A DNA stretch of 64,000 nucleotides, from contig CBDBCF010000001.1 of NCBI GenBank assembly GCA_965202985.1, forward strand, positions 288,001-352,000, in the 5' to 3' direction. The position numbers and the translations under genes were made by a program. This document shows positions 8,827 to 64,000 of this stretch, in pieces. Each line of letters begins with the position of its first letter. Position 1 is the first letter of the stretch. A model generated the notes under the pieces. It ran no database searches. It saw nothing but the letters and a program-made list of their open reading frames with translations, and was not told the origin of the DNA. The stretch comes from Longimicrobiales bacterium (GTDB lineage Bacteria > Gemmatimonadota > Gemmatimonadetes > Longimicrobiales > Gaopeijiaceae).

Positions 8827-8980
8827 GTGTTTGAACCTAACGTGATGTCCGCCCTGCCGCGACTGCCGGCCGATCCTTCGCGGGAGGCCGACTGGTCGGC
8901 CCAAGACCCCCTGTCACACCCCCTCGCTATCCTTCGCCGTTTTCTGTCTTCCCCCCGGAACCAGAAGGAACCGCGCCACC

Positions 8981-11868: not shown

Positions 11869-11879
11869 CCTCCGGAAAG

Positions 11880-12757: not shown

Positions 12758-12794
12758 GCCGCCCGAGTTGCTCAGGTCGCCCGGGCCGCCCGGC

Positions 12795-17562: not shown

Positions 17563-18162
17563 CTACAAGTACACCTGCAGGTACAGGAAGGGCCAAACCA
17601 GCACCACGAAGTACCAGAACAGCGCCACGGTGGACAGCGTCTCCTTGGCCAAGCGGCCCGCGCGCAACCGCCCCCAGGCCCACGCCAGCGCGCAGATCGC
17701 AACGACCGCGTGCAACGCGTGGGCACCGATGATCGTGTAGAAGAGGCTGCCGTAGGTGGAAGAAGTCAGCGTGAGTCCTTCCGCGAGCAGCGCCGCCCAT
17801 TCCACGCCCTGCAAGGCCACGAAGGCGCCCCCGAGCAGCGTCGCCAGCAACAACAGAACGCCGACCCCCTTCTGCCGGTCCCGCTGGTACGCCCGGTGCG
17901 CCACCAGCAGCAGAACGCCGCTCAGAACGAGCGCGCCGGTGTTGACGGCGGTTCGCTCGAAGGGAAGGCGCGGCTGGCCCGGCGGTGGCCACACCGAACC
18001 CAGCGCCCGCGACTTCACGATCACGAACGCGGATATGAAGCCCGCAAAGAGCATCACCTCCACGAACACGATCAGGATCATCCCCATCACGCCGTTGGAG
18101 AGCAGCTTGTCCGGCTTGCGCGGGCGAGGCCGGAACGGAAGGATCGTCGCGTCCGCGGTCAC
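17563..18162 (-). CDS. ctaE: Cytochrome c oxidase subunit III-like (second copy)
   Basis: GMILIVFVEVMLFAGF, NTGALVLS, HALH, FWYFVVLVW. Confidence 0.85.
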   Translation of the reverse strand: MTADATILPFRPRPRKPDKLLSNGVMGMILIVFVEVMLFAGFISAFVIVKSRALGSVWPPPGQPRLPFERTAVNTGALVLSGVLLLVAHRAYQRDRQKGVGVLLLLATLLGGAFVALQGVEWAALLAEGLTLTSSTYGSLFYTIIGAHALHAVVAICALAWAWGRLRAGRLAKETLSTVALFWYFVVLVWPFLYLQVYL

Positions 18163-18181
18163 GGCAGTCGGCCCTCCCTCC

Positions 18182-18949
18182 CTATGCCTCGCGCCGCCGC
18201 CCGGCCCGCCACTCCCGAAGCCCCTTCAGCGTCTCCAGGATCAGCAGTCCGGCGCCGATGCTGAGCAGGATCGCCACGGCGTTGGTCCCGACGGCCACGA
18301 GCCCCACCACCGACCAGAACGCCGCATGCGTGAAGTTGTACCCGCCCGGCAGCAGGTTGGCGTTGGACTTGGCGGTGGGCACCAGCCCGGCCTCCGAGCC
18401 GCCGGCATCGCCGTCCGAACCGTGCGTCGCTTCGCTGTCGTGCGCGTCCGTCGTCCCGGCAGCCTCGGCGTCGTGGGTCGTTCCGGCCTCGCCGGCAGCT
18501 CCCGCATCGTGCGCTTCCCCCTCGTCCCCATGGGCCTCCGGCTCCGAAATCCCGCGCGCGACCGCCGCCTGCGCGGCCACGTTCTCCCAGTTGGCGCCGG
18601 CGTGGTTCTGCACGTCGGGCGCAATGCCGCCCCAGAAGAGCGCCAAGAGCAGCACCGACGCCGCCAGGAACCACTTCGCAATCGGCCGCTCGATCGACAG
18701 ATGCATGAAGTGCTTGACGACCAGCCACGCCTTCACCACCGCGATCCCGAACGCCGTCACCAACGTCACGAACGTGGCCACGCGGATGCCCAGTCCGGGG
18801 AACTGGCCTTCGCCCAGCCTGGGCGCCACCATGGGGCCCACGATGCTGATCGCCAGGAGCCCCATTAGGATCAGGTAGATCTTGACGTAGTGGTTGGAAA
18901 GCCAGCCGCCGGAGCGGGCGTCGGAACCGGAGTTGGAGTGCGCGGCCAT
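18182..18949 (-). CDS. Cytochrome c oxidase subunit IV family protein with long His/acidic extension
   Basis: IAVVKAWLVVKHFMHL subunit IV motif, then an EAHG/AHDA-rich linker and further TM helices. Confidence 0.75.
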   Translation of the reverse strand: MAAHSNSGSDARSGGWLSNHYVKIYLILMGLLAISIVGPMVAPRLGEGQFPGLGIRVATFVTLVTAFGIAVVKAWLVVKHFMHLSIERPIAKWFLAASVLLLALFWGGIAPDVQNHAGANWENVAAQAAVARGISEPEAHGDEGEAHDAGAAGEAGTTHDAEAAGTTDAHDSEATHGSDGDAGGSEAGLVPTAKSNANLLPGGYNFTHAAFWSVVGLVAVGTNAVAILLSIGAGLLILETLKGLREWRAGRRREA

Positions 18950-18958
18950 ATCAGTCGC

Positions 18959-19524
<566 letters not shown>

Positions 19525-19528
<4 letters not shown>

Positions 19529-21261
19529 TTCGGTTCGCTTCTAGGCGGGGAGTTCTGCGGCCAGTAGTCGTCCTTCCGGTCGGGCACGCTGTATTCGTAG
19601 GGGCCTCGGTACACGACCGGCATCTCGTCGGGACGCCAGTTGCCGTGGGGCGGCGGCGACTCGGTGGTCCACTCCAGCGAGTTGGCCTTCCAGGGGTTGC
19701 GGGACGCCTTCCGGCCTCGTCGCCACGACTTCCAGCAGTTGTAGAAGAACACGAACTGGAACGCCAGCATGACCAGCAGCGCAATCGTGGCGATCTCGCG
19801 CATGTTCTGGAACTCGGGGATGCCCAGCTCGGGGAAGTTCGTGTAGTCGTAGATGCGTCGGTGCTGTCCCCCCATTCCCAGCACGAACAAGGGAATGAAG
19901 ATCAAGTTGAACGGGATGATCGTGCCCCAGAAGTGCCACTTGCCCAGGCGGTCGTCCATCATCTTGCCGAACATCTTGGGGAACCAGTAGGTGAACGCCG
20001 CGAAGGTCCCGATGATGGCGATGGGGAAGAACGTGTAGTGGAAGTGGGCCAGGACGAAGTAGGTGTCGTGGAAGTAGATGTCGGCGCCGGCCGCGCCCAG
20101 GAAGATTCCCGTCACGCCGCCGATCAGGAATTCGGCGACGAACGCCAGCGCCCAGAGCATCGGCGTGTTCAGCGTGATGGAGCCGCCGTACAAGGTGGCG
20201 ATGTAGACGAAGCACAGCTCGGCGATCGGCACCGAAATGAGCAGCGTGGTGATCGTGAACAGGTTGGCCATCCGGGGGTCGATCCCGGCAATGAACTGGT
20301 GGTGCGCCCAGACGAAGAAGCTGAGGACGCCGGTGGCCACCACCGTGAAGATGACCGTGCGGTAGGCGAACAGCTTCTTGCGCGCGAAGGTGGTCATGAT
20401 CTCGGCGACCACGCCCATCGCCGGCAGCAGCACCACGTACACCTCCGGGTGCCCGAAGAACCAGAACAGGTGCTGCCATAGGATCGGGTCGCCCCCGGTG
20501 GCCGGGTTGAAGAACCCCGTGCCCAGCGTCTGGTCGAAGAGCAGCATGACGGCGCCGGCCAGCAGCGGCCCCACCGACAGCATGAACAAGATGCTGGCGA
20601 TCACGATCATCCACACGACCACGGGCACGTCGAACGCCCGCATCCCCGGCGCGCGCGAGTTCATGAGCGTGGTGATGAAGTTGATCCCGCCCAGCAGGAA
20701 GGCCACGAACTCCAAGCCGACCCCGATCAGCCACAGCGTGCTTCCCAACGGCGTCAGGTTGTACGCTCCGTCTGCGGAGAGCGGCGGATAGGCCGTCCAA
20801 GCGCCCGCGAAGCCGCCGCCCTCCACGACCAGCGACGCCAAGATGACGATGGTGCTGACGAAGAACACCTGGAACGACAAGCGGTTGATCTTGGGGAACA
20901 CCATGTCGTCCGCCCCGACCATGAGCGGAATCAAGTAGTTCCCGAAGGCGGCCAGCAACACGGGCATCGCCACCCAGAAGATCATGATCGTGCCGTGGTT
21001 CGTGACCAGCGCGTTGTACTCGCCGGGCGACACCATGCCGAAGCCGGGCACCTCGATGCCCGGGAAGGCCAGCTGCATGCGGAAGACGTACGCCATGAAG
21101 CCGCCCACCAGCGCCATGAACATGCCCGTGAACATGTACTGCATGGCGATGACCTTGTGGTCGGTGGACCACACGTACTTCAGCCATCCCTGGGGACCGT
21201 GGTGGGCGTGTTCCTCGTCGCGGTCAGGCTCGTGGACCGGAGCGAGTGCGGGCTCGGCCAT
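19525..21261 (-). CDS. ctaD: A-family cytochrome c oxidase subunit I
   Basis: STDHK, HGTIM, WFFGHPEVY, WAHH, HDTYFVLAHFHY, RR pair. Confidence 0.97.
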
Positions 21262-21963
21262 CTATGCGTCTCCTAGCGTGCGGGGCGTGTTCGCCGCGAT
21301 CCAGGCCGCGTGCGCTTCCGGGTCCTCCACCGTCACCTCCGCCAGCATGACGCCGTGCCCAAAGCCGCAGATCTCCGCACACTGGACCTCGAAGGTGCCC
21401 GTTGCGGTCGGCTGGAACCAGCCCGTGATGCTGCGCCCCGGAATGGCGTCCTGCTTGATCCGCCACGCCGGAACCGAAAAGCTGTGCAGCACGTCGGTGG
21501 CCTCGAGCTTGAAGTGGTAGACCTTGCCGTTCTCGACGTGCAGGTCGTCCACCGTGAAGATGTCGTCGGGCGTGTCCAGTTCGTTGTCGGCGCCGGGGTG
21601 CTGGAACGTCCAAGCCCACTGCTGGCCGACGATCCGGATCACGGCGTCCGGGTTCTCGGGCAAGTCCAGCTTGATTGCGTGCCACACCTGGAACGAAACG
21701 ACCACGATCGCCACGTCGCACACGAGGACCAGCAGGTGAGGGATCGTGATCCACCGCTTGTGGCGCTTGTTCTTGCCGTCGATGTACTCGGCCCGCCGAC
21801 CCGGCTTGGCCCGGAACCTCATGATGAAGTACAGGAACAAGGCTTCGGCGGCCAGGAACCACACGCCCACCACCACGAGCACAAGAAGGATGAGGAAGTC
21901 GATCTGGCCCGCGTAGGACGACGCGACCCGGATCAAGCCGTCGAAGAAGTGGGTTTCGTTCAT
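21262..21963 (-). CDS. ctaC: Cytochrome c oxidase subunit II (CuA)
   Basis: Two TM helices, GQQWAW, DVLHSF, CAEICGFGHGVM. Confidence 0.95.
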   Translation of the reverse strand: MNETHFFDGLIRVASSYAGQIDFLILLVLVVVGVWFLAAEALFLYFIMRFRAKPGRRAEYIDGKNKRHKRWITIPHLLVLVCDVAIVVVSFQVWHAIKLDLPENPDAVIRIVGQQWAWTFQHPGADNELDTPDDIFTVDDLHVENGKVYHFKLEATDVLHSFSVPAWRIKQDAIPGRSITGWFQPTATGTFEVQCAEICGFGHGVMLAEVTVEDPEAHAAWIAANTPRTLGDA

Positions 21964-21976
21964 GGCAGGGCGTCCC

Positions 21977-22171
21977 CTACAGCAAGGCGTAGACGACCGC
22001 GGCGGCAACGAACAAGACGACGCCGACCACGGTCACGTGGAACGTCTTCTTGGCGAACTGGATCGACTCGTTCTCGTCGTCCGGCGGGGGCGGCGGGAGC
22101 TTCGCCGCCAGCTCAGCGTGGGTGGGCGGACGGCTCTCGGCGGGCGCGTTCGGCGAAGGCGTGGATTCCAT
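21977..22171 (-). CDS. Small membrane protein (64 aa)
   Basis: Pro-rich N-terminus and a single C-terminal TM helix, in operon position. Confidence 0.6.
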   Translation of the reverse strand: MESTPSPNAPAESRPPTHAELAAKLPPPPPDDENESIQFAKKTFHVTVVGVVLFVAAAVVYALL

Positions 22172-22195
22172 GGTCGTCGGTCTGCGGCTCCGGGT

Positions 22196-23230
22196 TCAGC
22201 GGCTCAAGGCGTACACGTAGGCCGCCACTGCTCGGACTTGGTCGTCGGTGAGCGGCATGCCGGCACGGGGCTGCATCGTTCCCGGATGCTCCACGGGCTG
22301 CGGCACGCCGGTGATCACCAGCTGCACGATCGACTCGTACTCGCCGTCGACGTTCAGCCAGACGTCGTCGGTCAAGTCGGGCGCTAGAGGACCGCCGGCG
22401 CCGCCCTCCGTGTGGCAGGTGTAGCAAATCCCCACCCCGTGGAAGATCGACTGGCCCTCCTCGACCATGCCCACCGTGACGCCCTCCGGCAGGATCGCCG
22501 GGTCGACGCTGACCGGCGGCGGCCCTGTCGGCTGGGCCGCGGCCGTCTCGCGCTTCCGGGGCAGGCGCTGCATCGTCATGACGTAGGCGACCACGTCTTC
22601 GATCTGGGGGTCGGACATGCCGACCACCGGCGCCCGCATCGTGGCCCCGGCCGCGTCTCCCGGCGTGGCGCCCCGAATCCCCGCCCGGTACTTCTTGAGC
22701 GCGGAGGTCATGTACCAGTCGCTCAGATGAAGGAGCGACGGCGCGTTCAGGCTGCGCATCCCGCGTCCGTCTCGGCCGTGGCAGTTGGCGCACAGCAGCG
22801 CGTACTGCTCCTCGCCGGCCTCGGCGTCGCCGAACCCGGTGGCGGGCGGGTCGGCCAAGGGCAGGCTGGCCACGTAGGCGGCGATCGCGTCGATCTCGCC
22901 GTTGTTCGAGTCCAGCGCGCGGGACATTGGGCGCATCCGCAGCCCCTCGGCGTCCTGGTAGTGGTAGCCCCGGCGCCGCTCCTGGAACGCGGTCAGCTGG
23001 GCCTTGAGGTACCACTCCGAGGCTCCGGCGATGGCGGGCGCCGCCAAGTCGAGTCTGCCCGCGCCGTCCTTGCCGTGGCAGGGCGCGCAGGTGTCGAACA
23101 GCCCCGCGCCCCGTTCGAGCTGCGGGTCGGACTCGCCGCACGCCGTCAGGAGCAGCGGGGCGAAGGCAAGGCCGGCCAAGACGAGCGCCGACGGGGAACC
23201 GAGAGAAGGTCCTGGCAGGAACCGTGTCAT
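22196..23230 (-). CDS. Triheme c-type cytochrome lipoprotein (c4-like dyad + third domain)
   Basis: Lipobox LTAC; CAPCH, CANCH, CYTCH. Confidence 0.9.
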   Translation of the reverse strand: MTRFLPGPSLGSPSALVLAGLAFAPLLLTACGESDPQLERGAGLFDTCAPCHGKDGAGRLDLAAPAIAGASEWYLKAQLTAFQERRRGYHYQDAEGLRMRPMSRALDSNNGEIDAIAAYVASLPLADPPATGFGDAEAGEEQYALLCANCHGRDGRGMRSLNAPSLLHLSDWYMTSALKKYRAGIRGATPGDAAGATMRAPVVGMSDPQIEDVVAYVMTMQRLPRKRETAAAQPTGPPPVSVDPAILPEGVTVGMVEEGQSIFHGVGICYTCHTEGGAGGPLAPDLTDDVWLNVDGEYESIVQLVITGVPQPVEHPGTMQPRAGMPLTDDQVRAVAAYVYALSR

Positions 23231-23250
23231 GGTCGAAAGATAAGCCCCCG

Positions 23251-36404: not shown

Positions 36405-37590
36405 TCAGCGGGTCCACTCGCCTTCCCAGAGGCCGGCCGCGAACTCGCGTGCGGGAACGATCTCGATCCCGTCTTCCGTGCGCCGGCGGCGGGGCTCCCG
36501 GCATACCACGATTCGCCGCCGGACCGTCGGGTGGTCCCGGACCAAGCTCCGCAACCCCTTGAGATGCCCCCGAACGACGTTGCGGCTGGACTTGGCCTCC
36601 AACGCCACCTCCATCTCCCCGATCACGAAGTCCACCTCCGTGCCTCCCGCCAGCCGCCAAAACGAGAGATCGGCCTCGGCCTGCCGGTAGCCCAGATAGG
36701 CGGCCAACTCGTGGAACACCCAGTTCTCGAACGCCTTGCCGTAGTCCGCGGACCCGGAGAGCACCCGTCCTCGGCGCGCCAGCCGGTTCACCACGCCCAC
36801 ATCCGAGAAGTAGAACTTGGGCGCGTGCGCGACGCGCCGCTTGGCCCGCTTGCGGTAGGCCGGCAGCCACGTTCCCAGCAGCGTGTCCGCCAGCACTTCG
36901 AAGTGGCTTCTCGCGGTGTGGCCGGAAACACCGCACTCGCGGGCAATGTTGGCGAAGTTCACGACCTCGCCGTCGCACAGCGCCGCCGCCTCCAGGAAGT
37001 TGGAGAACCGAGGAATGTTCCGCACCAGCCCTTCCGCCGCGATTTCCTCCTTCAAGTAGTCGCCCACGTACGCGTCCAGCAACCGCCCCGGCCGGCTCGC
37101 GCGGTAGACCCGAGGCAGGTAGCCGTGGTTCAGGATGCGGTCCAGGTCGAAGTCGTCGGCCAGCTCGCCCGCCGTCATCCCGCGCAGTTCGTACCGATGG
37201 GCCCGTCCCCCGAGCAGGTTCGCCCCGCCCCGCCGAACCTTCCGGGCGCTCGACCCCGCAGAGCGCGAAGCAGTGGCCGCGCGCCTCCATCAGCCAGTGC
37301 ACTTCGTCGAGCAGCGCCGGGACCTTCTGGATCTCGTCGATCACGATCTGCCTTGACGGTGCGGCGCCCCCGGCGTCGCCGGCCGACTCGGCCTCCAGCT
37401 CCTGGCGAAGCAGCTCCGGGCGAGCGGCGTACCTGCGGAAGTGGTCGGCCTTCAGCAGGTCGATCCAGCGGGCGTCGGGAAAGACCTCGCGCAGGAGCGT
37501 GCTCTTGCCGGTCTGCCGAGGTCCCCACAGGAAGAAGGTCTCGGTTCCCGCCGCCGGAAGAGAAAGCGCTCTTCGGAAGTGAGACTTCAT
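36405..37590 (-). pseudogene. AAA_14 ATPase + DUF4143 protein, frameshifted at ~37255
   Basis: GPRQTGKS and IDEIQK lie in one frame; KFYFSDVG, FENWV, EVDF and EAK lie in another. Removing one base from the C4 run at 37254-37257 restores CGSSARK...LGGRA. Confidence 0.85.
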
Positions 37591-37832
37591 TTTTTCACGA
37601 ATATGTGAAGTGGTGATTCGGATCAGTCGCTTGCCGATATCTAGTGAATTCCAACTGGCGGGGCAAGGTAGAGGACTGAGCGCGTGCCGCTCGCCACCTC
37701 CTGCGCGACTGCAGTTCTTGAGCCGGGTCGACCCCGGAGGCGTGCCGACGACGCCCGCCTTGGATGCCGCCGGCCCGCCGCGGGGCTCGCTGTCGCCGGG
37801 CGCGGTTGCTGGACAGGTGCGGCGTCGGCCGG

Positions 37833-48027: not shown

Positions 48028-48239
48028 TAGTGCCGCCTCCTCTCGCGTGTGTGCTGCTTGCCTGACTTGCCCGGCGATGATCCTCGTCCGGGCCGAGCGT
48101 GCACGTTACATCGGGGAACGGGCGACGTCAAGGAACTCGCCCTGGGCCACTGGAGAGAGCAGCGAGGTACCCAGGTTGCCGACAGCCGGCCCAACGAGCG
48201 CCAGAAACAGCCACCCGACCCGCGCCTCTCGACGGCACG

Positions 48240-48268
48240 TTGACGGCCGAACGCTCTCAAGCGATACT
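48240..48268 (+). promoter_or_regulatory. Putative sigma-70 promoter of the NTPase cassette
   Basis: TTGACG-17 bp-GATACT, about 60 bp upstream of the ATG at 48330. Confidence 0.55.
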
Positions 48269-48329
48269 GAAGGATCGTCCGGCGACCACCCCAGAGTCGC
48301 GAAAGCCGCATGCTCTAACCTTCGGCGTC

Positions 48330-50729
48330 ATGACAACAGCAGAAGAAACGATCACGAAAGCCGAAAAGTTGCTTGCGAAAGGCCACGCAAAGGAGCCCCA
48401 GCAACTCTTGACCGATCTTATTCAGCAGATGAACGCAACCGCCCTCTCTGATTGGCGCGCCGACCTTCTCAAGACGATCGACAAGTTTCAGCCGAAGTAC
48501 CGTCGAAAACTGTTGCAGCTTCTAGATCGCAAGAAGGTCACACCATCCGTTGTCCGCGAGTCCGCCACCGTTGCCTACCAGGCTCCGGTGACCTCAGCAA
48601 CTCCCGGCGACTTGCCCGGCGAAGACGCCTTCCGGCGGGATCTTGCAATACTTTCCGAGCGGCACATATTTCAATGGTCAAGCCACTACGATGCATGCCT
48701 AGCACGACACTTTGATATTTACTTCGCGCATCTGAAACAAACACCACCGGCCAAACACTATGCGGAATCCGCTCGAAGGCTCCTGCGTGAACACGCTCAC
48801 GACATCTTTTCCAAGGGCTATGGGTTTCAAGTAGAGCGCGTGGGGCAACCAACTGCAATGCAGAAATCGATTGGTGGACTCGCGCGATTTCTTGAACTTC
48901 CGCTTGCATACTACTCCGCACGATCATCCGACGCTGTCGATCGCGTCTCGATCCGGGCCCTTCGAGCTCTCTTCTCGTCTTCTCTGCTTGGCATCATGCA
49001 GGGATACGAATCGATCAAATTCGATCTCGGCACAGGCGCTACGGTACTGCCCCGCCACTTCAAGAGACTCGCCTACTATCTCGCGTTCCTGGAGCCCGCC
49101 GTGGCGGCGAAGGTCGTCGACCTCATCACCGAAGACGATGTGGCCGATCGGCTCCGTCGGGCGGTCATTCCTCTGCTCGAATCACTGGACACCCTGATTC
49201 GCAAGGATCACGAGGACTACTATCCGCTTCCCATCTTCGGTCGCTATCTCGATTCGCAGGGTCGGTTCGAGATCGGCGTGCGGGCACCCCAATCCGTGAC
49301 GTCGCGCTATGCGATCGAGGCGCACGCCTACTTGAACTATGAGCATGCTACTCCGTTGGTACTCGACGAAGCGCTGGCAAGTGGCGTCGCGCTTGTCGTG
49401 GCACCCTTGCCGCCCGATGTCGCGGCGCACGTATCGTCAAATCAACGCTTGGCCGATATTGTGGTCAAGACCAGCAGACCGCAAGAAGATGTGATTCAAG
49501 CAGCGGTCCACGCCTGGGATCGGGCGATCTATTCGCTCCGCAGCAAGCGTGCACAGACGACACCGTACAACATTGCAAGAGAGTTTCCTTTACGTGAGCC
49601 GGCCAAGGCCAAATTCTATCATGTCCAGCGCAACAGTGTGCGGGACCTGCTCCGGACGTTCGATCGCAAGAACGGGGTAAGGTTGTGGTGCAGCGTCAGG
49701 CGAAGCGGCAAGACAACCGCGTGCTTCGACTTCGACTTCACTGCTGGCGATTCCGCGATAGTCCCCCAGACATGTGGTACCAAGCCAACTCCAAACGGGC
49801 GGTTGTTCTACGACAGAATATGCGATGCCGTGGCGTTGCAAGCCCCGATCGGCAACGACTTCGTGACCAACCTTGTCCAGGAATGCGCGCCGGTTCCAAT
49901 GGAAGGCGGTCAACGAATCGTCTTTGTCGTCGACGAATACGAGACGTTGTTTGGGTATTTGCAAAGCGCAGCCGACCAGAACAGATTCCTGCGCTACACG
50001 ATCGTTCAACCTCTTCTCAATCAACTTGTGGAATTTGCTCGCGACAATTTGCTGGTGTTTCTGGGCCAACAACCGGACGCCCACTTCATTCTCATGGACC
50101 AGAACCAGCTTGCTCCCTACGTCGAACAGGATCGTTTTCCATTGTTCGGACACGTCGAAGGAACCGGCGCCGGCGAATTTGGACGACTGGTCGGAAAAAT
50201 CCTCTCCGATCGGATCGAAGTAAGTCCAGGTTTTTTGGACGCGCTCTATCGCGAGACTGCTGGCCATCCCTTTCTGACGGCCAACGTGCTGTGTGTGTTT
50301 GTGGACTGGCTGATTGAACAACAGTGGTCGCTTCGGGGATTGCGCCTTCGAGAACGTCATTTGCAATCCTTTCACGAACAGAAACACGGGTTTGAACAAC
50401 TGTCTCTTTACGAAGACTACAGCTTCTTTCGGAAAGCAGCACGACAAGCGATGAGCGAACGGGGTTATCGTTCGAACCGGTGGTTGTACACCGTATATTG
50501 GGTTCTTCGCGAGATTGCCATGTCGAATCGCTCGGAGTTGGCCGTGTCGCGCAACGACTTTGCAGAGGTCTTGGACCGCATCCCAGCCCCTGGGGACTTG
50601 CCGGACGCAAACGAGATTCTCCGCACGGCGTCGCAGGCCAACTTTCTTCGCGTGTCCGACGATCAAGTGAGCGTCAAGATTGGAACGTTGGGCAGGCTGG
50701 CGGCGTCGGTGCGGCCAGCGCAGGCGTGA
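48330..50729 (+). CDS. Large STAND-like P-loop NTPase with unrecognised ~430-aa N-terminal region (799 aa)
   Basis: Walker A variant SVRRSGKTT, Walker B IVFVVDEYE, STAND GxP motif TAGHPFL, C-terminal winged-helix-like end; atypical codon usage. Confidence 0.75.
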   Translation: MTTAEETITKAEKLLAKGHAKEPQQLLTDLIQQMNATALSDWRADLLKTIDKFQPKYRRKLLQLLDRKKVTPSVVRESATVAYQAPVTSATPGDLPGEDAFRRDLAILSERHIFQWSSHYDACLARHFDIYFAHLKQTPPAKHYAESARRLLREHAHDIFSKGYGFQVERVGQPTAMQKSIGGLARFLELPLAYYSARSSDAVDRVSIRALRALFSSSLLGIMQGYESIKFDLGTGATVLPRHFKRLAYYLAFLEPAVAAKVVDLITEDDVADRLRRAVIPLLESLDTLIRKDHEDYYPLPIFGRYLDSQGRFEIGVRAPQSVTSRYAIEAHAYLNYEHATPLVLDEALASGVALVVAPLPPDVAAHVSSNQRLADIVVKTSRPQEDVIQAAVHAWDRAIYSLRSKRAQTTPYNIAREFPLREPAKAKFYHVQRNSVRDLLRTFDRKNGVRLWCSVRRSGKTTACFDFDFTAGDSAIVPQTCGTKPTPNGRLFYDRICDAVALQAPIGNDFVTNLVQECAPVPMEGGQRIVFVVDEYETLFGYLQSAADQNRFLRYTIVQPLLNQLVEFARDNLLVFLGQQPDAHFILMDQNQLAPYVEQDRFPLFGHVEGTGAGEFGRLVGKILSDRIEVSPGFLDALYRETAGHPFLTANVLCVFVDWLIEQQWSLRGLRLRERHLQSFHEQKHGFEQLSLYEDYSFFRKAARQAMSERGYRSNRWLYTVYWVLREIAMSNRSELAVSRNDFAEVLDRIPAPGDLPDANEILRTASQANFLRVSDDQVSVKIGTLGRLAASVRPAQA

Positions 50730-50759
50730 AACGAAACGGGAAGGAGGGGTAGGCGGACG

Positions 50760-51776
50760 GTGATCAAGGCGTCTGACGTAGTTGAGGATATCCGAAAGCG
50801 TCGAGGCAGCTCGAAAGAGCCAGTGCGGTTCTACTGGGTAACGGTGACTTCGCAGACCGAGCCCGCTGATCGAAGTGCGTTCGTGGACGCCGTACGGCAC
50901 CTGACATCGGATGAGGCGGCATGCTCGATCGCTTTGCGTACAGAACGGTTCACTCATCCAGACATGGTCATGGACGATCTCGCAAAGACGCTTGAAGAGA
51001 TCAAGAGCCAGGTGCTCGCGTCGGAATTGAAGGTGCGAGTTGAGAAGGCCGGATCACTGGACGTGGTCGTCGTGTCGCGAAAGAGCTTCGAGTTGGCCGT
51101 CAACACGTCGCCACTCCAACTGCCGGAGTGGTTTCCGGTGTCGCCTGAACAGGTCGTCAATGCTTCGGTGACCGACTTGACGCTGCGTGTGGCGGTGCCC
51201 CTGTCCCACGTCGACACGGGCGAGCTCTGTCGCTTGCTTTACGAGCTGGACCGTGGGTTGCTGAGGCGAATCAAGGCTGGATTGGACGCGGACCCGAAGT
51301 TGGTCAATCAATTTCTCACCGAGTGTCGGGACAGGACCAGGGGAGTGGCGTCTTATCAAGAGGTGCTGGTCGACGTCGAGAGGAAGCTGGACGACGTCCG
51401 GAATCCAAGGGACTATCGCCCGAGTAGGGCCGGAAGCTGTACTCTGGTGGGCCACATTTGGCACTTGGCCAATACGAAGTCAGCCAACGATCTGGTCAAG
51501 ATTGCGAAGAGCCTGGCCTGTGCGGCTGGGATGGGAGCTGCGAGCGTGGATGATTTCCCCGAGGCCCTGTTGACCGTGCTTGGTCGTCCCAGGATTCGGC
51601 ACGCGGACTCTCGATGGGCATACAACGTGATCATGAGCACCCAAGGCGCGTGTCAATTGATTACGGCAGCCGCGCACGCCGACCGCTACGGGCGGTACCC
51701 GGCCTGGTTGCTGCGGTCGTTGTCGCTGGACCTGCGGAGGTCCCTCGACGACGCCGTACGATTGCTGGCGAGTTGA
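50760..51776 (+). CDS. Hypothetical protein (338 aa), partner of the NTPase
   Basis: AAGGAGG RBS, 30 bp after the NTPase, same atypical composition. Confidence 0.75.
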   Translation: MIKASDVVEDIRKRRGSSKEPVRFYWVTVTSQTEPADRSAFVDAVRHLTSDEAACSIALRTERFTHPDMVMDDLAKTLEEIKSQVLASELKVRVEKAGSLDVVVVSRKSFELAVNTSPLQLPEWFPVSPEQVVNASVTDLTLRVAVPLSHVDTGELCRLLYELDRGLLRRIKAGLDADPKLVNQFLTECRDRTRGVASYQEVLVDVERKLDDVRNPRDYRPSRAGSCTLVGHIWHLANTKSANDLVKIAKSLACAAGMGAASVDDFPEALLTVLGRPRIRHADSRWAYNVIMSTQGACQLITAAAHADRYGRYPAWLLRSLSLDLRRSLDDAVRLLAS

Positions 51777-56893: not shown

Positions 56894-57418
56894 CTATGGG
56901 GTGGCGGGCATCCGCAGAACCAAAGCCCCGCCTTCGTCCATCGTCACCAGGGCCACTTCCCCCGCGGCCAGCTCCACTTCGCCTTCCCAAGCGACGGGGG
57001 CGGAAACTGGGTCCGGCGAGTCCGCGGCTTCGGGCGGCACGGGCTCGAAGCGAACCGACAGGGCCGCTCGACCGGCTTCGACTGGAAGGTTGCGGAAGAC
57101 ATAGACGGGCTGGTCGCCCCGCGCTCCCTTGGGAAACACGGTGTCGCGGACGACCGCACGACCGCCGACGGACACGTCCAGCGCGAAGGGGACCGGCGTT
57201 CGGGTGCACTCGCGGGGGTTGCGCATGTGGACCGGAAGGGCTTCCAGCTCTTGGGCCGAGCGGATTCTGCACGCTTCGACAGACGCGCCGGCCGCGCGCC
57301 ACGAAAGGCGAATCAGCGCATCGGCGCGGCCGAACTCGGACGGCACTCGGGACAGGAATGCGACTGCGGTCGCCATCGCCACGGCGAGAACGGCGGCTGC
57401 GGCCCGGCGCACCGTCAC
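56894..57418 (-). CDS. Membrane-anchored hypothetical protein coupled to the cytochrome b fusion
   Basis: GTGA overlap, N-terminal anchor, C...LPVHMR...C segment, beta-rich C-terminus. Confidence 0.7.
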   Translation of the reverse strand: MTVRRAAAAVLAVAMATAVAFLSRVPSEFGRADALIRLSWRAAGASVEACRIRSAQELEALPVHMRNPRECTRTPVPFALDVSVGGRAVVRDTVFPKGARGDQPVYVFRNLPVEAGRAALSVRFEPVPPEAADSPDPVSAPVAWEGEVELAAGEVALVTMDEGGALVLRMPATP

Positions 57419-59037
57419 GTCGCGGCCTCCTCGATCTCGCACTCCGCGCCGACGTCGAAGTCCTGCTCGGCGCGCGCCGCCTCCATCGACACGACGCGAG
57501 ATCGGAAGCGGCGCACGGCGTCCCGCAGCACCCTTCCTTCGCCCGAGCCGGCGTAGACGACCGTGATCCGACTGCGGTCGACGCGGTCCTGAAGCTCGGC
57601 GTCGCGACCGCTCCAAACCCGCTCGTCGAACCACTTCACCCCTTCGCGGCTTCGACAGTCCCTGGGCGGGCACGCCGCTATCACCACGCCCCCCGCCCCG
57701 GCCCGGACCAAGTACTCGATCGCCGACGTGTGAAGGTTTCCCACGCACCCGATGGGGAACGTCCGCAACGAGCCTGTCCCGTTGCTTCCCGCGGCGTCGG
57801 CCTCCTCCGCGGCAATGCGCCCGGCCGCGCCATGCATGCACCCGACCACCACCAAGTCGTGGGGACCGGGTCGCACCTGGGCCACGAAGTCGTTCACCCT
57901 GGCCAGCTGGTCGCGCCCCGTCCGTCCCGGCGGCCCGACCCCCATGGGGGCGCACGACCCCGCGCAAACGCCGCAGCTCACGCACTTGGCGGGGTCCACT
58001 AGGCCGACGAGGCCATCCCGTCCGTCGTCCCGTTCGACCATGGAGATGGCCTCGTAGGGACAGTCCACGTAGCACTGCTCGCAACCGGTGCAGTAGCGGG
58101 GGTTCACCCAAGACGGCTGCGGGGCCTTTCCCGCGCGCGGCTTGGTCAGCAGCGGAACCAGCAGGATCGCCAGAACCACGACGCCCCCCGCAACCCACAC
58201 CCAGCCGGCCGCCATCGACCGAGCCGCCGGAAGCCAGAAGCCGTACGCCCAGTCGGTCGGCACGCGCCCGGGCTGCCGCAGCAGGTCGGCTTCCGGGCCC
58301 AGCGGGGGAGGCCACGCCAAGGCCACGGTGGCAACGAGGGCCACGGCGCCCCACATTAGCGGCTTGGGCGGCAGCAGCTGCGCCCTGGCCAGACGCGACA
58401 CGTGAACCCAGAGAAAGAGCGCGATCCCGACGGGCAATGCGATGTGGGCAAACAGGTTCATGAAGAAGAACGCGTCCGGCACGGGCTCTTCGCCGGTGAA
58501 CGCCCGGCCCAGGGGCTCGGAGAAGACCGGCAGCGCGTCCAGAAGCCGCGCGCCCTCGACGGCGAGAAGCTGGCCGTGGGCGTCCCACACCATGACGTAC
58601 CCGGTCCAGCCGCACACGAAGAAGATGCCCAGGAGCACGACGCCCGAGACCCACGCCAGTGCCCGCGGTCCCCACGTTCGGCGTTGCGCGAACATGCGAA
58701 AGCCGTGGAAGAGCGCCGCGACGACGGCCAGGTCCGAGACGTAGCGGTGCATTCCCCGAATCCACCGTCCGCCCCACCACTGCGCGTGGATCCCCGCGAC
58801 CGACTCGTAGGGCGCGCCGATCCGGTAGAACAGAAGCAGATAGACGCCGGTCACCATGAGCACCGCGAAGCAGGCGACCACGAGCGCCCCCGAGTGGTAG
58901 AGGGGGTTGCCTCGCCACGTGTACAGCGCGTTGAACGCGGCGTCCATCCGGGCCAACGCGCCAATGCCGGCGCCGCTGCCGGGCCGTTGCCGCTTGGCGG
59001 CTCGGCGCGTTCCTTGCGCGCCTTCGGGATTGATCAT
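57415..59037 (-). CDS. Fusion: cytochrome b N-terminal domain + 2x[4Fe-4S] ferredoxin + MvhD/FlpD-like domain
   Basis: Two His pairs 14 residues apart (MH...FH, AH...VH), GWTGYVMVWD, CTGCEQCYVDCP, CVSCGVCAGSC, GC...CVG...GAGGVVIAACPPRDC; start uncertain. Confidence 0.88.
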   Translation of the reverse strand: MINPEGAQGTRRAAKRQRPGSGAGIGALARMDAAFNALYTWRGNPLYHSGALVVACFAVLMVTGVYLLLFYRIGAPYESVAGIHAQWWGGRWIRGMHRYVSDLAVVAALFHGFRMFAQRRTWGPRALAWVSGVVLLGIFFVCGWTGYVMVWDAHGQLLAVEGARLLDALPVFSEPLGRAFTGEEPVPDAFFFMNLFAHIALPVGIALFLWVHVSRLARAQLLPPKPLMWGAVALVATVALAWPPPLGPEADLLRQPGRVPTDWAYGFWLPAARSMAAGWVWVAGGVVVLAILLVPLLTKPRAGKAPQPSWVNPRYCTGCEQCYVDCPYEAISMVERDDGRDGLVGLVDPAKCVSCGVCAGSCAPMGVGPPGRTGRDQLARVNDFVAQVRPGPHDLVVVGCMHGAAGRIAAEEADAAGSNGTGSLRTFPIGCVGNLHTSAIEYLVRAGAGGVVIAACPPRDCRSREGVKWFDERVWSGRDAELQDRVDRSRITVVYAGSGEGRVLRDAVRRFRSRVVSMEAARAEQDFDVGAECEIEEAAT

Positions 59038-59052
59038 ATCTTCATGATAATC
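59028..59052. promoter_or_regulatory. Candidate Rrf2 operator (imperfect inverted repeat)
   Basis: GATTGATCAT-N6-ATGATAATC in the AT-rich divergent region. Confidence 0.4.
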
Positions 59053-59075
59053 GGAACAAACCCGAGAGCAACCTC

Positions 59076-59525
59076 GTGATCGCCTCCCAGACCACCGTGT
59101 ACGCCCTTCGAGCAATGCTCTACTTGGCCGAACGAATCGACACCCACCCGGTGCGCGTGGACGACATCGCGACGGCGCTGGAAGTCCCGCGCAACTACCT
59201 GTCCAAGATCCTTCACGTGCTGGCGCGGCGCGGATTGCTCCGCTCGGCCAGGGGCCCGGGCGGCGGGTTCAGCTTGGCCAAGTCCCCGCGCCGCACGACG
59301 CTGCTGGAAATCGCCGCCCACTTCGACGACATGAGCCCCGGGCGCTGCCTCTTGGGCCGTCCCGAGTGCCGGGACGACGACCCGTGCCCCGCTCACGGCC
59401 AGTGGAGGGAAGTGGCGACGACCCTGCACGCGTTCTTCCGCGACACGACCCTGGCCGACTTGGCCCGTCGCTCGGATGCGACGGCGCGCCCCGAACCCCG
59501 ACCCCCAAGCGAGAAGGCCGACTAG
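59076..59525 (+). CDS. Rrf2-family Fe-S transcriptional regulator
   Basis: YALRAMLYLA, YLSKIL, SARGPGGGF, CLLGRPECRDDDPCPAH. Confidence 0.95.
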   Translation: MIASQTTVYALRAMLYLAERIDTHPVRVDDIATALEVPRNYLSKILHVLARRGLLRSARGPGGGFSLAKSPRRTTLLEIAAHFDDMSPGRCLLGRPECRDDDPCPAHGQWREVATTLHAFFRDTTLADLARRSDATARPEPRPPSEKAD

Positions 59526-59527: not shown

Positions 59528-59698
59528 ATGAACCACGACGATCCCGAAGCCCAACCGAACGACGAAGCCCCTTTCCTTCAGAGACTGTACGACCGGCCCT
59601 TCGTGCTGCTGGCGTTGGGCTTGGCCGTCATGTTGATCCTGTTCACCGGGTGGGGGCTTTGGGAGGTGGCGACGCTTCCCGAAGCCACGCTGCCGTAG
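59528..59698 (+). CDS. Small single-TM subunit of the heme-copper oxidoreductase cluster
   Basis: QRLYDRPFVLLALGL...GWGLWEV, located between rrf2 and subunit II. Confidence 0.7.
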   Translation: MNHDDPEAQPNDEAPFLQRLYDRPFVLLALGLAVMLILFTGWGLWEVATLPEATLP

Positions 59699-59728: not shown

Positions 59729-60274
59729 ATGCATGCAACGGGCATGACGCCACCCCAGGGGGTCTGGTGGAAGCCGGCCCACAAGGCCGAGAAGGTGTGG
59801 GCCGTCGTCGCCTTCGTGTGGTGCATGGTGCTCTTCGCCATGATGCCGTTCTGGCACCTTCGCGGCGGGCAGAATCCGTCGGGGATCCGCGCCAAGGTGG
59901 ACCCGGCGGAGTACCAGGCGCGGACGATGGAGTTCATTCGCAACTACCAGGTCGGCACCGACAACGGCTTTCCGGTCGTCGCGCCGCCGCCGGGCAGCGA
60001 CGTGTACCTGATCGGCCAGATGTGGTCGTGGCTCCCCGTCCTCCAGCTCGAGAAGGGGGTCGAGTACACCCTGCACTTGTCGGCGCTGGACGTGAACCAC
60101 GGCTTCAATCTGTATCCCTTCAACGTCAACTTCCAAGTGGTTCCGGGCTACGACTACGGCCTGCGGATCGTGCCCACCGAAGCCGGCGAATACGGCGTGG
60201 TCTGCAACGAGTTCTGCGGCGTCGGCCACCACTTGATGGTGGGCAAGGTCGTCGTCACGGAGGGCGAGCCGTGA
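59729..60274 (+). CDS. B-family-type heme-copper oxidoreductase subunit II (CuA)
   Basis: One TM helix, DVNHGF, CNEFCGVGHHLM. Confidence 0.92.
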   Translation: MHATGMTPPQGVWWKPAHKAEKVWAVVAFVWCMVLFAMMPFWHLRGGQNPSGIRAKVDPAEYQARTMEFIRNYQVGTDNGFPVVAPPPGSDVYLIGQMWSWLPVLQLEKGVEYTLHLSALDVNHGFNLYPFNVNFQVVPGYDYGLRIVPTEAGEYGVVCNEFCGVGHHLMVGKVVVTEGEP

Positions 60275-61992
60275 GCAACCGCTTCCGGACCTGCCTCACG
60301 ACGGGCCTCGCCGTGCACAAGGACGCCGACGCCCTGATCAAGGCCAACGCCGTGGCCGCCACCGTGGCCCTGCTGATCGGGGGAATCGCGGCTGTGCTCG
60401 TCCTGCTCACGCGCTGGCAGGCCGTGCATCTGCTGAACGACGTTTGGTTCTACCGGATCCTCACGGTGCACGGGATGAACATGCTGATCTTCTTCATCCT
60501 GTTCTTCGAGATGGCGATCCTCTACTTCGCGTCCGCCGTGCTGCTGAACTCGCGGGTTGCAACGCCGAAGGCCGGTTGGATCGCGTTTGGGCTCATGGTG
60601 GCGGGCGCTGCCATGGTCGAATGGACGATGCTCGCGGGCAAGGCCGACGTGCTGTTCACGTCCTACGTGCCGCTCAAGGCGCACTGGGCGTTCTACTTGG
60701 GCGTCATTCTGTTCGCGGTCGGCGCAATCGTGGTGACCACGATCTTCTTTGCGACGCTGGTCGTTGCCAAGCGGGAGAAGACGTACACCGGATCGGTGCC
60801 CCTGGTGACGTTCGGGGCCGTCACGGCAGCGATCATCGCGGCGATCACGCTGCTTCACGGCGCAGCGATCTACATCCCCACCTTCCTGTGGTCGCTGGGC
60901 CTCATGGACGTGGACGCGCAAGTGTACCGCCTGGTCTGGTGGGGACTGGGCCATTCGTCGCAGCAGATCAACGTGGCGGCCATGGTGGCGATATGGTACC
61001 TGCTGGGCGCGCTCACCGTCGGCGCCGTCGTAGTGAACGAGAAGATCAGCCGCACGGCCTTCGTCTTGTACATCCTGTTCATCTCCATGGCCTCGGCCCA
61101 CCACCTGCTCGTAGACCCCGGGTTCGGCCCGTCGTGGAAGGTCGTGAACACGTCGTACTTCATGTACATGGCCGTGCTGGCGTCGATGCTGCACGGATTC
61201 ACGGTGCCCGCCGGCATCGAGATGGGGATGCGCTTGCGCGGCTTCACGCAGGGAGTGTTCGGCTGGCTTCGGCGCGCGCCGTGGCACGACCCCGGCTTTT
61301 CGTCGCTCTGCCTTTCGGTCGTGGTGTTCGGGTTCGTGGGCGGCATCACCGGCGTGACGTTCGGCACCGAGCAGATCAACATCATCGCGCACAACACGCT
61401 CCGCATTCCCGGCCACTTTCACGCGACGGTGGTGAGCGGCACCGCCATGGCGTTCATGGGCGTCACCTACTACGTGATCCCGCTGATCTTCCGCAAGCGA
61501 GTCGCGTTCTACGGCATGGCGAAGTGGCAACCGTGGGTGTTCAGCGCGGGCATGCTGGTGTTCTCGATGGCGATGACGTTCGCCGGCACCTTCGGCGTGC
61601 CGCGTCGGCATTGGGACATCACGTTCTCGGGCGCTCCGTTCGGCGTGGAGTATTCTCCCGCGGTGGACTTGATGTTCGCCGTCATGGCGATCGGAGGCCT
61701 AGTGGCGGCCGTGGGCGGCGCCATGTACATCGTGGTCACCGTGACGTCGGTCTTCTTCGGCAAGCCGCTCGGAGACGAGACGACCGAAGCGGCGCTGGCA
61801 GGCGCCGTGCCGCCCGGCCTGTACACGCGACCCTTCACCGAACTCCCGTCCGAACCGGTCGAGCTCCGCGAGCACGGAAAGCTGGGGATGATGCCGGGCA
61901 CGATGATCCTCGTGGCCGTGTTCATGCTGGCGTTCGTGGTCTACTACTTCGTCAACTGGAAGCTGCTGTCGGCGATGTGGCAGATCGGGTGA
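60271..61992 (+). CDS. Heme-copper oxidoreductase subunit I lacking the cross-link Tyr (eNOR-like nitric oxide reductase)
   Basis: Six His ligands present (TVHG, GHSSQQ, AHH, GHFH) and GVPRR, but Gln at His+4. Confidence 0.8.
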   Translation: MSNRFRTCLTTGLAVHKDADALIKANAVAATVALLIGGIAAVLVLLTRWQAVHLLNDVWFYRILTVHGMNMLIFFILFFEMAILYFASAVLLNSRVATPKAGWIAFGLMVAGAAMVEWTMLAGKADVLFTSYVPLKAHWAFYLGVILFAVGAIVVTTIFFATLVVAKREKTYTGSVPLVTFGAVTAAIIAAITLLHGAAIYIPTFLWSLGLMDVDAQVYRLVWWGLGHSSQQINVAAMVAIWYLLGALTVGAVVVNEKISRTAFVLYILFISMASAHHLLVDPGFGPSWKVVNTSYFMYMAVLASMLHGFTVPAGIEMGMRLRGFTQGVFGWLRRAPWHDPGFSSLCLSVVVFGFVGGITGVTFGTEQINIIAHNTLRIPGHFHATVVSGTAMAFMGVTYYVIPLIFRKRVAFYGMAKWQPWVFSAGMLVFSMAMTFAGTFGVPRRHWDITFSGAPFGVEYSPAVDLMFAVMAIGGLVAAVGGAMYIVVTVTSVFFGKPLGDETTEAALAGAVPPGLYTRPFTELPSEPVELREHGKLGMMPGTMILVAVFMLAFVVYYFVNWKLLSAMWQIG

Positions 61993-62068: not shown

Positions 62069-62989
62069 GTGGTGGAGCGGCGGTCGGTGATCGTGCGTCC
62101 GGAGGACCGCTGGCCCTTGGGGGCGGCCGGCTTCATCCTGGCCGTGTCCGCCGCGTGGTGGGGGTTCGCGCTCTTCTCGGTGCCCGGCGCCCCCGAGTGG
62201 ATGGAGCGCGCGCGGGCCGTCTGCTTCAACCTCGGCGAGAGCGGCCTGCCCGACGCCAAGGGTTGGTTGCTGCTGATCGGCCAGCCCCCGTCGATGCTCC
62301 TGGCTCTTTACGCCGGCTGGCGGGACCAAGTGCGCAGCACGCTCCGCCACTTGACCGACTCGCGTCTGGGGCGGCGCATCTTGGCGGGGTCGGCCGTGGC
62401 CGCGCTGTCGTTTCTGGCCATTGCCGCGGCCCAAGTCGTCAGCCTTCGCCTTCCGCCGGCGACGCTGGCCGCCGACTTCGGCGCGAACGCCGGCGAGCCG
62501 CTGCCCGAGACCTATCCTCGCATCGACCGACCCTGGCCCGGCACGACAGGCCTCGTGGACCAGCACGGAAACCCGTTCGCGCTGGAGAGCCTGGACGGCC
62601 GCCGCTCCTTTGTCGCCTTCGCGTTCGGCCACTGCACCACGATCTGCCCCGTAGTCGTGCGCAACTCGTTGCAAGCGCGACAGGCCGCGTCGCACGACAT
62701 GTCGGTCGTGGCGCTCACCCTGGACCCGTGGCGCGACACGCCCAGCCGGCTCCCCTCTCTAGCGGAGCGCTACGGCCTGGACCCCGCCCGCGATTTCCTG
62801 GTCGGCGGCAGCCCCGAAGCCGTAACGGCCGCCCTCGAGGCGTTCAACATGGCCCACCGCCGCGACCCCCGGACAGGCGACATCATTCACCCCTCCCTGG
62901 TCTATCTGGCCGAAGCGGACGGCACGCTGGCCTACGCCTCCACCGGCTCAACGACCCACTTGGTGCAGTTGGCGGCTCGGCTGCAGTAG
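62069..62989 (+). CDS. SCO-family copper chaperone with N-terminal membrane extension
   Basis: FGHCTTICP, TLDPWRDTP, IIH. Confidence 0.9.
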   Translation: MVERRSVIVRPEDRWPLGAAGFILAVSAAWWGFALFSVPGAPEWMERARAVCFNLGESGLPDAKGWLLLIGQPPSMLLALYAGWRDQVRSTLRHLTDSRLGRRILAGSAVAALSFLAIAAAQVVSLRLPPATLAADFGANAGEPLPETYPRIDRPWPGTTGLVDQHGNPFALESLDGRRSFVAFAFGHCTTICPVVVRNSLQARQAASHDMSVVALTLDPWRDTPSRLPSLAERYGLDPARDFLVGGSPEAVTAALEAFNMAHRRDPRTGDIIHPSLVYLAEADGTLAYASTGSTTHLVQLAARLQ

Positions 62990-63055: not shown

Positions 63056-63707
63056 TCAGTCGGGCGCAGTGAGATGAACAACCCGTTGTTCTTCCGGACG
63101 GATCGACGGCCGGAACCGGTGCTCGCTTTTCCGCAGCCCATCCGCATAGCCGTGGCCATCGTCGTCGTAGAAGTTCCGCAACACGAAGTCCATGAACAGG
63201 TGGGGCGTCAACGGAGCGGAGACGGGAATCCGGCAACCTCGATACTGCCCCAGCGTCATGTGGCACTTCGGGTGCGCGAAGGGAAGCTCTCGCCCGTTGG
63301 CATTGTAATCAATCCTCAACGGTAGTGGGGCCAAGCGACGCCCTACGATGTGAACGTGACGTTCGTCTCGGAGGTAGTCTTCCGGTGCATTCTGGAATTC
63401 GTCCAAGTCCGGTGCCGGCAGGAACGCCAATCGGTGACGGAGCAAACGGCGTTGCTCGAACTGATACCATCGCGCCGTCGAGCATCATTGCATTATAGGC
63501 CCTCATGGCAGCCATGTGTTTGTAGCTTCCAGCGTATTCCTTCATGCTCATCGCCCTGGCGATATGCTCGTGTCCTCCAAAGGAAACTGATGAGATCGAC
63601 CGCACGCGCTTTTGGGTTGGCCACTGCTGGGATCGGACAAGGCCCATCTCCATTAGACGGATCGTTATGCTCCGGATCTCGGCCACAACGCGATCAAGGC
63701 CCGTCAC
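63056..63707 (-). pseudogene. DUF2290-like protein, frameshifted near 63466
   Basis: YNAMMLDGAM lies in one frame; YQF...HRLAF, LRIDY, HPKCHMTLGQYRGCRIPVSAPLTP..F.DFVLRNFY lie in another. Confidence 0.8.
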
Positions 63708-64000
63708 GTCCTCGGTTTTCGCTCCCTGACAGCAAGTAGTCGTTCCAGTGCCGGGCGAAGATCTTCGACATCTTCTAGATACACTTCGCCTGCGTCAAGA
63801 TTGTCGCCAAACCGTCTCACAGCGCTTCGGAATTCCTTTACCACATCGGCACCCTCGCGAGACATATCCCGATGAACCACACGCATTCGATCCAGCTCCG
63901 CCTTGGTCGGATACCTGAATTTCAACCTGTATTCGTTCGCTTTTAATTGTGCATGTTCCTGAGACAGCTTCCGCATGTCTTCGCCTATGCCTGCCACGCG
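63704..64000 (-). CDS. C-terminus of a probable superfamily-1 helicase-like protein (5' part outside window)
   Basis: RVAGIG...LKFRYPTKAEL..MRVVHRD tail; 4-bp overlap with the DUF2290 gene; helicase motifs not visible in the window. Confidence 0.6.
   Translation of the reverse strand, partial: RVAGIGEDMRKLSQEHAQLKANEYRLKFRYPTKAELDRMRVVHRDMSREGADVVKEFRSAVRRFGDNLDAGEVYLEDVEDLRPALERLLAVRERKPRT

Follow-up and report, generated by a model that had tools for sequence, protein, structure and literature searches.

The 64,000-nucleotide window analyzed here (contig CBDBCF010000001.1, positions 288,001 to 352,000, of the Longimicrobiales bacterium assembly GCA_965202985.1) carries on its reverse strand two overlapping genes divergent from an operon for eNOR, a nitric oxide (NO) reductase. 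The larger gene (57415..59037, −) encodes a 540-amino-acid fusion of cytochrome b (helices A-F), a 2x[4Fe-4S] ferredoxin and an MvhD-like [2Fe-2S] domain, as delineated by the open reading frame, Pfam, alignment and a structural model. The smaller gene (56894..57418, −) encodes a 174-amino-acid partner, for which the open reading frame, models and alignment predicted an anchor equivalent to helix G and a periplasmic beta-sandwich with a C50...H64-M65...C71 hairpin. It was concluded that the linkage of this module to eNOR is near-obligate, and that the two genes probably encode one Rieske-less cytochrome b machine with two hemes, three Fe-S clusters and an outward head, dedicated to eNOR.

The original prediction had described a single polypeptide joining a four-His cytochrome b, two [4Fe-4S] motifs and an MvhD/FlpD-like domain, and this architecture was borne out. 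Pfam matched Cytochrome_B at residues 46-216 (E 4e-15), Fer4 at 311-362 and FlpD at 410-517 (E 2e-9), the last (PF02662) scoring 38.2 bits against a cut-off of 22.3. The di-heme core was assigned to residues 44-216 (58390..58908, −) by Pfam and alignment, with His97/111/198/212 as heme ligands. The ferredoxin domain occupies residues 311-362 (57952..58107, −; Pfam, alignment and a solved-structure match) and the MvhD/FlpD-like domain residues 395-517 (57487..57855, −; Pfam and alignment), both predicted to be cytoplasmic. Conservation was measured in an alignment of 135 sequences, comprising the query and 134 of the 150 listed 50%-cluster representatives, those at least 480 amino acids long. 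The heme ligands H97, H111, H198 and H212 and the eight ferredoxin cysteines (C316/319/322/326/352/355/358/362) were kept in 99-100% of them, while the four predicted [2Fe-2S] ligands were kept in 98% (C400), 98% (C431), 98% (C456) and 82% (C461).

MvhD/FlpD is a [2Fe-2S] protein that normally bridges hydrogenase to HdrA. Residues 296-520 of the fusion found their best match in the HdrA2 profile (positions 559-773, E 1e-15), at 56 bits against a cut-off of 1100 and thus far under it, and the closest solved structure of the ferredoxin domain was the HdrA C-terminal ferredoxin, the Cys ligands lining up with 5odc_D. The FlpD domain occurs in a single copy in the genome, the fused one, and a hydrogenase or Hdr subunit was ruled out on this ground. 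A chance chimera of a metagenome-assembled genome was ruled out by 2,511 clusters with E<=1e-20 among the 8,000 scored. The closest relatives were found in Longimicrobiales/Gemmatimonadota metagenome-assembled genomes, and no relatives were found in viral contigs.

The four-His di-heme domain was present as claimed, but the membrane part runs on into helix E, an ef loop with a degenerate Qo motif and helix F (residues 225-298; 58144..58365, −; model and alignment). The motif reads PTDWAY in the window protein; D262 is kept in 124 of 133 family members and the Trp in 44 of 133, and the rest is variable. The residue ahead of the Asp is Leu, Ile, Val, Phe or Thr, Pro being absent from the five commonest residues there. 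W151 and D152 are also conserved in the cytochrome b part. Neither the Qi-site His of bc1 nor the heme ci Cys of b6f is present: there is no His five residues past H212, residue 217 being Ala, and H48 aligns to C35 of b6, where the family shows Q, R, H or Y. The ATG at 59037 sits inside a conserved operator and family conservation begins at about residue 27, hence the true start may lie further downstream.

The start of the partner gene overlaps the stop of the fusion through GTGA, an N-terminal helix was predicted by the model, and C50 and C71 were invariant in 83 split partners, in agreement with the claim of a translationally coupled, anchored protein with two Cys. The view of it as a separate protein held in part: the gene is coupled, but the corresponding domain is fused at the cytochrome b C-terminus in 102 of 107 representatives of at least 600 amino acids. 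By sequence comparison, the partner represents a fourth domain that has become separated from the same protein. It had no Pfam or NCBIfam match.

The naturally fused homologue P0129 was modeled at a predicted local distance difference test score (pLDDT) of 92 and a predicted template modeling score (pTM) of 0.90. Its structural alignment to bc1/bcc cytochrome b gave Z 20-24 and a root-mean-square deviation (rmsd) of 2.8-4.8 Å over about 250-268 residues. Most alignment rows stop at model residue 597-598, paired with about residue 344 of the mitochondrial chains, and from these range ends we read that the partner helix (566-590 in the P0129 model) would take the place of helix G. The helix numbering and membrane sidedness applied to the model were those we presume for cytochrome b. 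With the partner helix as helix G, the F-G loop on the cytoplasmic side would contain the Fe-S block as an insert, and a periplasmic position is predicted for the head. Such a placement fits the transmembrane conduit that had been put forward. The head itself was modeled at pLDDT 93 as a generic beta-sandwich with a protruding hairpin. It had no Foldseek match at E<=0.001, its best VIA Z was 7.1 (rmsd 3.9, 95 aligned), the matches being generic sandwiches of the transthyretin/Ig-like kind, and no cupredoxin or Rieske chain stood among the top structural matches listed. In P0246, P0266 and P0273, a form with five domains was observed that has a class I cytochrome c at its end and no Cys/HM hairpin.

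The divergent operon opens with an Rrf2-family regulator with three Cys (59076..59525, +; family scans). It is followed by a small one-helix protein of 56 amino acids (59528..59698, +), which comparison of loci showed to be conserved in eNOR loci ahead of subunit II. Pfam and alignment identified subunit II (59729..60274, +) with the CuA ligands H124, C159, E161, C163, H167 and M170. Alignment identified subunit I (60271..61992, +) as an eNOR-type protein of the B-family fold with Gln232 (GHSSQQ) in place of the cross-link Tyr; Q232 aligns to the ba3 Tyr of HPIVY. A Gln at this site is a criterion of eNOR (PMC8756737), and by the Gln and CuA criteria the neighboring subunits I and II are of the eNOR type. 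Next lies a copper chaperone of the SCO1/SenC type (62069..62989, +; Pfam and alignment), which bears a membrane domain at its N-terminus and in which C189, C193 and H274 are invariant. Its N-terminal part (window 62069-62400) was observed to be an extra three-helix membrane domain with a Cys-containing loop (consensus RxVCFN), of no known family.

Between the divergent units lies a conserved imperfect palindrome (59034..59055), predicted from a motif matrix and a genome scan to be their shared operator, with the Rrf2-family protein as its presumed binder. The motif was derived from the region between the divergent genes. The matrix, built from 75 other loci, reached at least 15 bits in 67 of the 75 and in none of the 64 control stretches, which were taken downstream of the partner. 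These training loci include near kin and score themselves, and the genome scan served as the held-out test: in the 3.86 Mb genome the top site was window 59034-59055 with 28.1 bits, the next one reaching 19.3. This suggests that the divergent units are under shared Rrf2 control, in which Rrf2 binding and a response to NO are presumed. The co-regulation with the eNOR genes implied by the original prediction was thereby supported, as deduced from sequence. A sigma-70 promoter scan found no sites. A weaker operator match of 16.3 bits at window 37587-37608 (G000:C1:325587) is probably background, with 9 sites of at least 15 bits on C1.

Further, the distribution of the module was examined. The fusion was found at 80 loci, in 73 of which subunit I was matched. 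Counting only contigs long enough to include the gene in question, 71 of 71 loci had subunit II, 70 of 70 had the partner and 52 of 55 had SCO. Among 251 Gemmatimonadota genomes, 59 held the fusion and 59 an eNOR-like subunit I (threshold E<1e-100); both were present in 58 and neither in 191. The two exceptions were a fusion remnant only and an eNOR only. The former (G125; L083, 9360-11470) is a decayed locus with frameshifted SCO and Rrf2 remnants, a truncated fusion and an intact-looking partner, from which subunits I and II are deleted. The latter (G189; L082, 8592-11001) is a 44% identical, minimal three-gene eNOR of the HGTQQ type lacking SCO, heme synthase and fusion; it adjoins genes resembling those of integrated elements. 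Thirteen further Gemmatimonadota genomes with only ~32% B-family matches had no fusion, and all 4 of the 4 checked carry HPLVY.

In 151 Myxococcota the identical 18 genomes held fusion and eNOR, within ~3 kb of each other, and 6 further matches covered cytochrome b alone. In four of the 18, the eNOR, the fusion and the divergent layout resemble those of Gemmatimonadota; the others have another subtype in one operon (17 loci in one examination, plus L055). The module therefore travels with its eNOR. Some Myxococcota operons (L093:8602-10047(−), L100, L104) open with a degenerate COX1-fold paralogue of ~480 amino acids (Pfam COX1 E 2e-10), which may correspond to what Becker et al. named the 'eNOR scaffold'; it was not seen in the operon of the window. 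In L089 (G059, 8391-13241), two operons, one for eNOR and one for a Tyr-type B-family oxidase, were found convergent, within ~1.5 kb.

A metagenome search from the eNOR side, with Defluviimonas subunit I as the query, recovered the fusion in 30 of the 30 loci with at least 3 kb downstream; 50 of the 80 loci were dropped as too short, 8 of these showing the start of a fusion. The order on the Defluviimonas plasmid is small gene, II, I, cyoE, SCO, fusion, partner, hemerythrin. The fusion lies directly 3' of SCO amid maturation genes in Defluviimonas, in 13 Myxococcota and in the proteobacterial-type loci. Recurrent neighbors in 135 loci were hemerythrin (18 of the 38 proteobacterial-type loci), CopD-like proteins (11), NirS (8) and Crp/Fnr (8), and no recurring neighbor family there was identified as Rieske. 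Relatives were also named from Deltaproteobacteria, Nitrospinota, SAR324 and Spirochaetia, without gene context. Since related genomes do not count as independent cases, the co-occurrence is reported with no p-value. Distance correlations with subunit II (r 0.94; 0.81 in the first 61 rows) were not used, as kin share distances.

These counts tie the fusion to the Gln-type subunit I, where an independent distribution would have spoken against the original prediction. The proposal of a conduit serving the NO reductase gained from this link and from the predicted topology, but the link has exceptions. At three divergent eNOR loci the module is absent locally, and SCO is likewise missing there. 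The plasmid eNORs of Thermus and Thermomicrobium (46-49%) have neither fusion nor SCO locally, as seen in plasmid records only.

The genome is 92% complete and holds a canonical Rieske and cytochrome b pair elsewhere. As had been noted, no Rieske gene is nearby: none of the 4 genome matches falls in the window; hydrogenase, HdrA and cytochrome c1 were not separately searched genome-wide. Replacement of a missing bc complex was ruled out by the presence of the Rieske/cytochrome b pair, and replacement of heme A synthase in this organism by CtaA, present elsewhere in the genome. NosZ, NirK and NirS were not found in the 92%-complete genome.

When compared with known systems, the fusion shares with cytochrome b of bc1/bcc and with b6 plus subunit IV of b6f the fold, four His, the ef loop and an equivalent of helix G. 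It differs in lacking a Rieske or c1 partner, the Qi His and the heme ci Cys, in its degenerate Qo motif, and in carrying an Fe-S insert in the F-G loop and a periplasmic head past helix G. With the C-terminal ferredoxin and MvhD of HdrA2-type fusions it shares the profile match and the aligned Cys ligands of residues 296-520, but it is membrane-bound, lacks the FAD or bifurcation domain and falls far under the family cut-off. The cupric reductase CcoG/FixG would be a functional analogue: it is a membrane protein that combines two [4Fe-4S] clusters with an Ig-like domain in the periplasm, and its gene adjoins that of a heme-copper enzyme whose assembly depends on it (PMC7558416). The window protein differs by its two b hemes and MvhD domain; CcoG/FixG was not listed for it in the Pfam or NCBIfam scans, and the membrane domain differs too. 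By these comparisons, the protein appears to be neither a bc1/b6f subunit nor a hydrogenase/Hdr subunit, and membership in CcoG is unsupported.

The claim that no characterized example exists stood as regards function: no functional study of the module was found in the literature, of which subscription journals and supplements may hold more. As regards architecture it was overtaken, since the domain combination was named in 2014 and relatives were reported from one eNOR operon in 2026. Kao and Hunte (2014) named a 'PDWF-FeS' cytochrome b clade, no function being given in the text available (PMC4122944). Its members, from Magnetospirillum magneticum and Turneriella parva, likewise combine cytochrome b, 4Fe-4S and the delta domain of methyl-viologen-reducing hydrogenase, with no Rieske gene. 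The clade comprised three sequences, is likened here by description, and came in that text with no mention of eNOR, a partner domain or an operator; the clade is marked by a PDWF/PDWY Qo motif, and the motif found here is TDWAY-like and family-degenerate. Becker et al. (2026) reported two 'bc1 chain C-like' genes in the eNOR operon of Ferrigenium straubiae (bioRxiv 10.64898/2026.01.22.701106). These encode cytochrome b + Fe-S proteins, lie with cyoE and sco, and were detected in the proteome; one has FAD/NADH domains absent here, again as compared by description. The authors called the genes 'rather unusual' and possible Ferrigenium markers, and proposed quinol:NAD+ reduction. Murali et al. 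(2024) defined eNOR, with CtaA as the one operon partner mentioned in the accessible text (PMC11214002); terms for the fusion had 0 occurrences in the accessible parts of its supplements, and the fusion is not described in the available text of PMC10734462, PMC8879329, PMC4013037 and PMC6431628. What is new here is the quantified two-way linkage to eNOR, the interpretation of the partner as supplying helix G and the head, and the operator common to the divergent units.

It was considered likely that the module acts as an outward transmembrane electron conduit. We infer outward flow because the Qi features are lost, the Qo motif is eroded with no Rieske partner, and FAD/NAD-fused relatives have been published (PMC4122944; bioRxiv 10.64898/2026.01.22.701106). 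For such relatives, transfer from NAD(P)H outward would be the sole simply downhill direction. An outward leak would spend membrane potential, which would be wasteful for bulk respiration and would fit low-flux assembly or repair.

The acceptor was assigned more tentatively, with confidence just short of an even chance, to the assembly or repair of eNOR metal centers together with SCO. This assignment was favored because an outward wire spends membrane potential, because the gene follows SCO in most lineages and because both are missing in three divergent loci. We proposed that a cytoplasmic low-potential donor, such as ferredoxin or an NAD(P)H flavoprotein, would reduce the Fe-S clusters, and that electrons would cross outward via the inner and then the outer b heme to the old Qo face and the head. 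There, the electrons would reduce the copper or the cysteines that SCO handles when CuA is loaded; alternatively, NO-damaged centers would be re-reduced, eNOR thus being built and kept active. The mode of action would resemble that of CcoG or CcdA/TlpA with no membership in those families. CuA assembly needs a periplasmic reductant (PMC7558416), and the purified R. marinus eNOR gave two bands according to a figure legend in the preprint of PMC11214002.

Several observations weigh against this proposal. In HdrA, electrons enter at MvhD and leave by the C-terminal clusters (PMC13580544), therefore the borrowed Fe-S block does not fix the direction. Donor, direction and acceptor are all deduced, and no recurring donor gene (flavoprotein) was found among the neighbors in the 135 loci. 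Gemmatimonadota place the fusion divergent from SCO, and L017 and L023 hold the fusion, the partner and subunits I-II with no SCO in the locus. The head motif varies: of the 107 long relatives, 91 have HM and 68 have the Cys pair, and HM is absent from 15 of the 83 split partners, all of the proteobacterial type. Moreover, 3 of the 107 long relatives replace the hairpin by a cytochrome c, which would point to delivery to a carrier. These counts ruled out an invariant His-Met copper site; the His-Met of the head is suggestive of a possible copper site, and the two Cys, not being invariant among the long relatives, probably form a structural disulfide.

The fused cytochrome c would suit direct catalytic supply, in which the same outward wire feeds CuA of subunit II from a cytoplasmic reductant, with the head, a bound metal or a cytochrome c as the link. 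Such a wire would bypass quinone and the bc complex, and eNOR would become a self-contained NO sink. The near-obligate linkage and shared operator are consistent with such a role, as are the loci that keep the module without SCO and the detection of the Ferrigenium proteins in a proteome (bioRxiv 10.64898/2026.01.22.701106). A genome with eNOR in which NirK, NirS and NosZ were not found also fits NO scavenging, for which the energy yield would be less important. However, this supply would be energetically wasteful, the module lies amid maturation genes in most lineages, and the Rieske/cytochrome b complex of this genome is able to feed cytochrome c. In addition, eNOR was active in vitro with N,N,N',N'-tetramethyl-p-phenylenediamine/ascorbate (PMC11214002) and has an ordinary CuA subunit. 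Direct supply was regarded as possible but doubtful. A bolder form was judged unlikely: a cytochrome b derived from complex III and refitted with a methanogen-type Fe-S block would be a quinone-independent wire from cytoplasm to periplasm, whose head in the Rieske position, with a labile metal or a His/Met relay, hands electrons straight to CuA or splits those of quinol between CuA and the cytoplasmic clusters. If true, the module would found a new class in respiration and most eNORs would have a third functional component.

The full cytochrome b fold with its ef loop and conserved D262, W151 and D152, and the tethering of the head on the Qo side, might instead indicate quinol oxidation at a Qo-like pocket. 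Electrons would then run inward to NAD+, hemerythrin-type iron or FeB repair proteins, possibly by bifurcation with the head replacing Rieske. Hemerythrin downstream in 18 of the 38 proteobacterial-type loci agrees with this route, and quinol oxidation coupled to NO reduction with NAD+ as the acceptor was proposed by Becker et al. (bioRxiv 10.64898/2026.01.22.701106). The degenerate Qo motif, with Leu, Ile, Val, Phe or Thr in place of Pro before the Asp and Trp in 44 of 133, argues against it, as do the missing linked Rieske gene and a head with no invariant redox ligand set. Transfer from quinol to NAD+ or low-potential Fe-S would be uphill and against the membrane potential unless bifurcated, and the route was considered improbable. 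A general accessory of B-family-derived heme-copper enzymes, which might sense redox state or help to make or insert heme A(s) and whose eNOR link would be historical, was thought very improbable: the module adjoins heme O synthase in Defluviimonas and Myxococcota, and CtaA and CtaB are fused in the Thermomicrobium eNOR locus where the module is missing, but CtaA lies elsewhere in this genome, Gemmatimonadota loci keep the module with no recurring heme-synthesis neighbor, Tyr-type B-family oxidases of the same phylum lack it, and it decays together with eNOR in G125.

The enzyme that the module accompanies is a common source of N2O, found in 547 GTDB genomes and 2,709 metagenome sequences (PMC11214002, Table 1), and neither its physiological electron donor nor its metal-loading route is addressed in the accessible text of that paper. 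A near-obligate, apparently co-regulated partner makes both questions testable by one deletion. The module may be required for heterologous expression of eNOR and provides a second marker for likely functional eNOR loci. The results also correct the routine label 'hydrogenase iron-sulfur subunit' on these genes, as well as the idea of a Ferrigenium marker, since by these counts the module is general to a large clade of eNORs. Structurally, the module represents cytochrome b reused without a Rieske protein.

Elsewhere in the window, an A-family heme-copper oxygen reductase operon was observed at 17563-23250 (−), with subunits II and I, two halves of III and a IV-like gene, preceded by a CxxCH cytochrome c protein; the organism thus has an O2 reductase as well as eNOR. 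Two low-GC islands, at 48099-51776 (+) (about 58-60% at 48-52 kb) and 63056-64000, look horizontally acquired. The former holds an ATPase-like 876-amino-acid open reading frame and a 338-amino-acid neighbor, and the open reading frames near the window end are, we assume, DUF2290-like.

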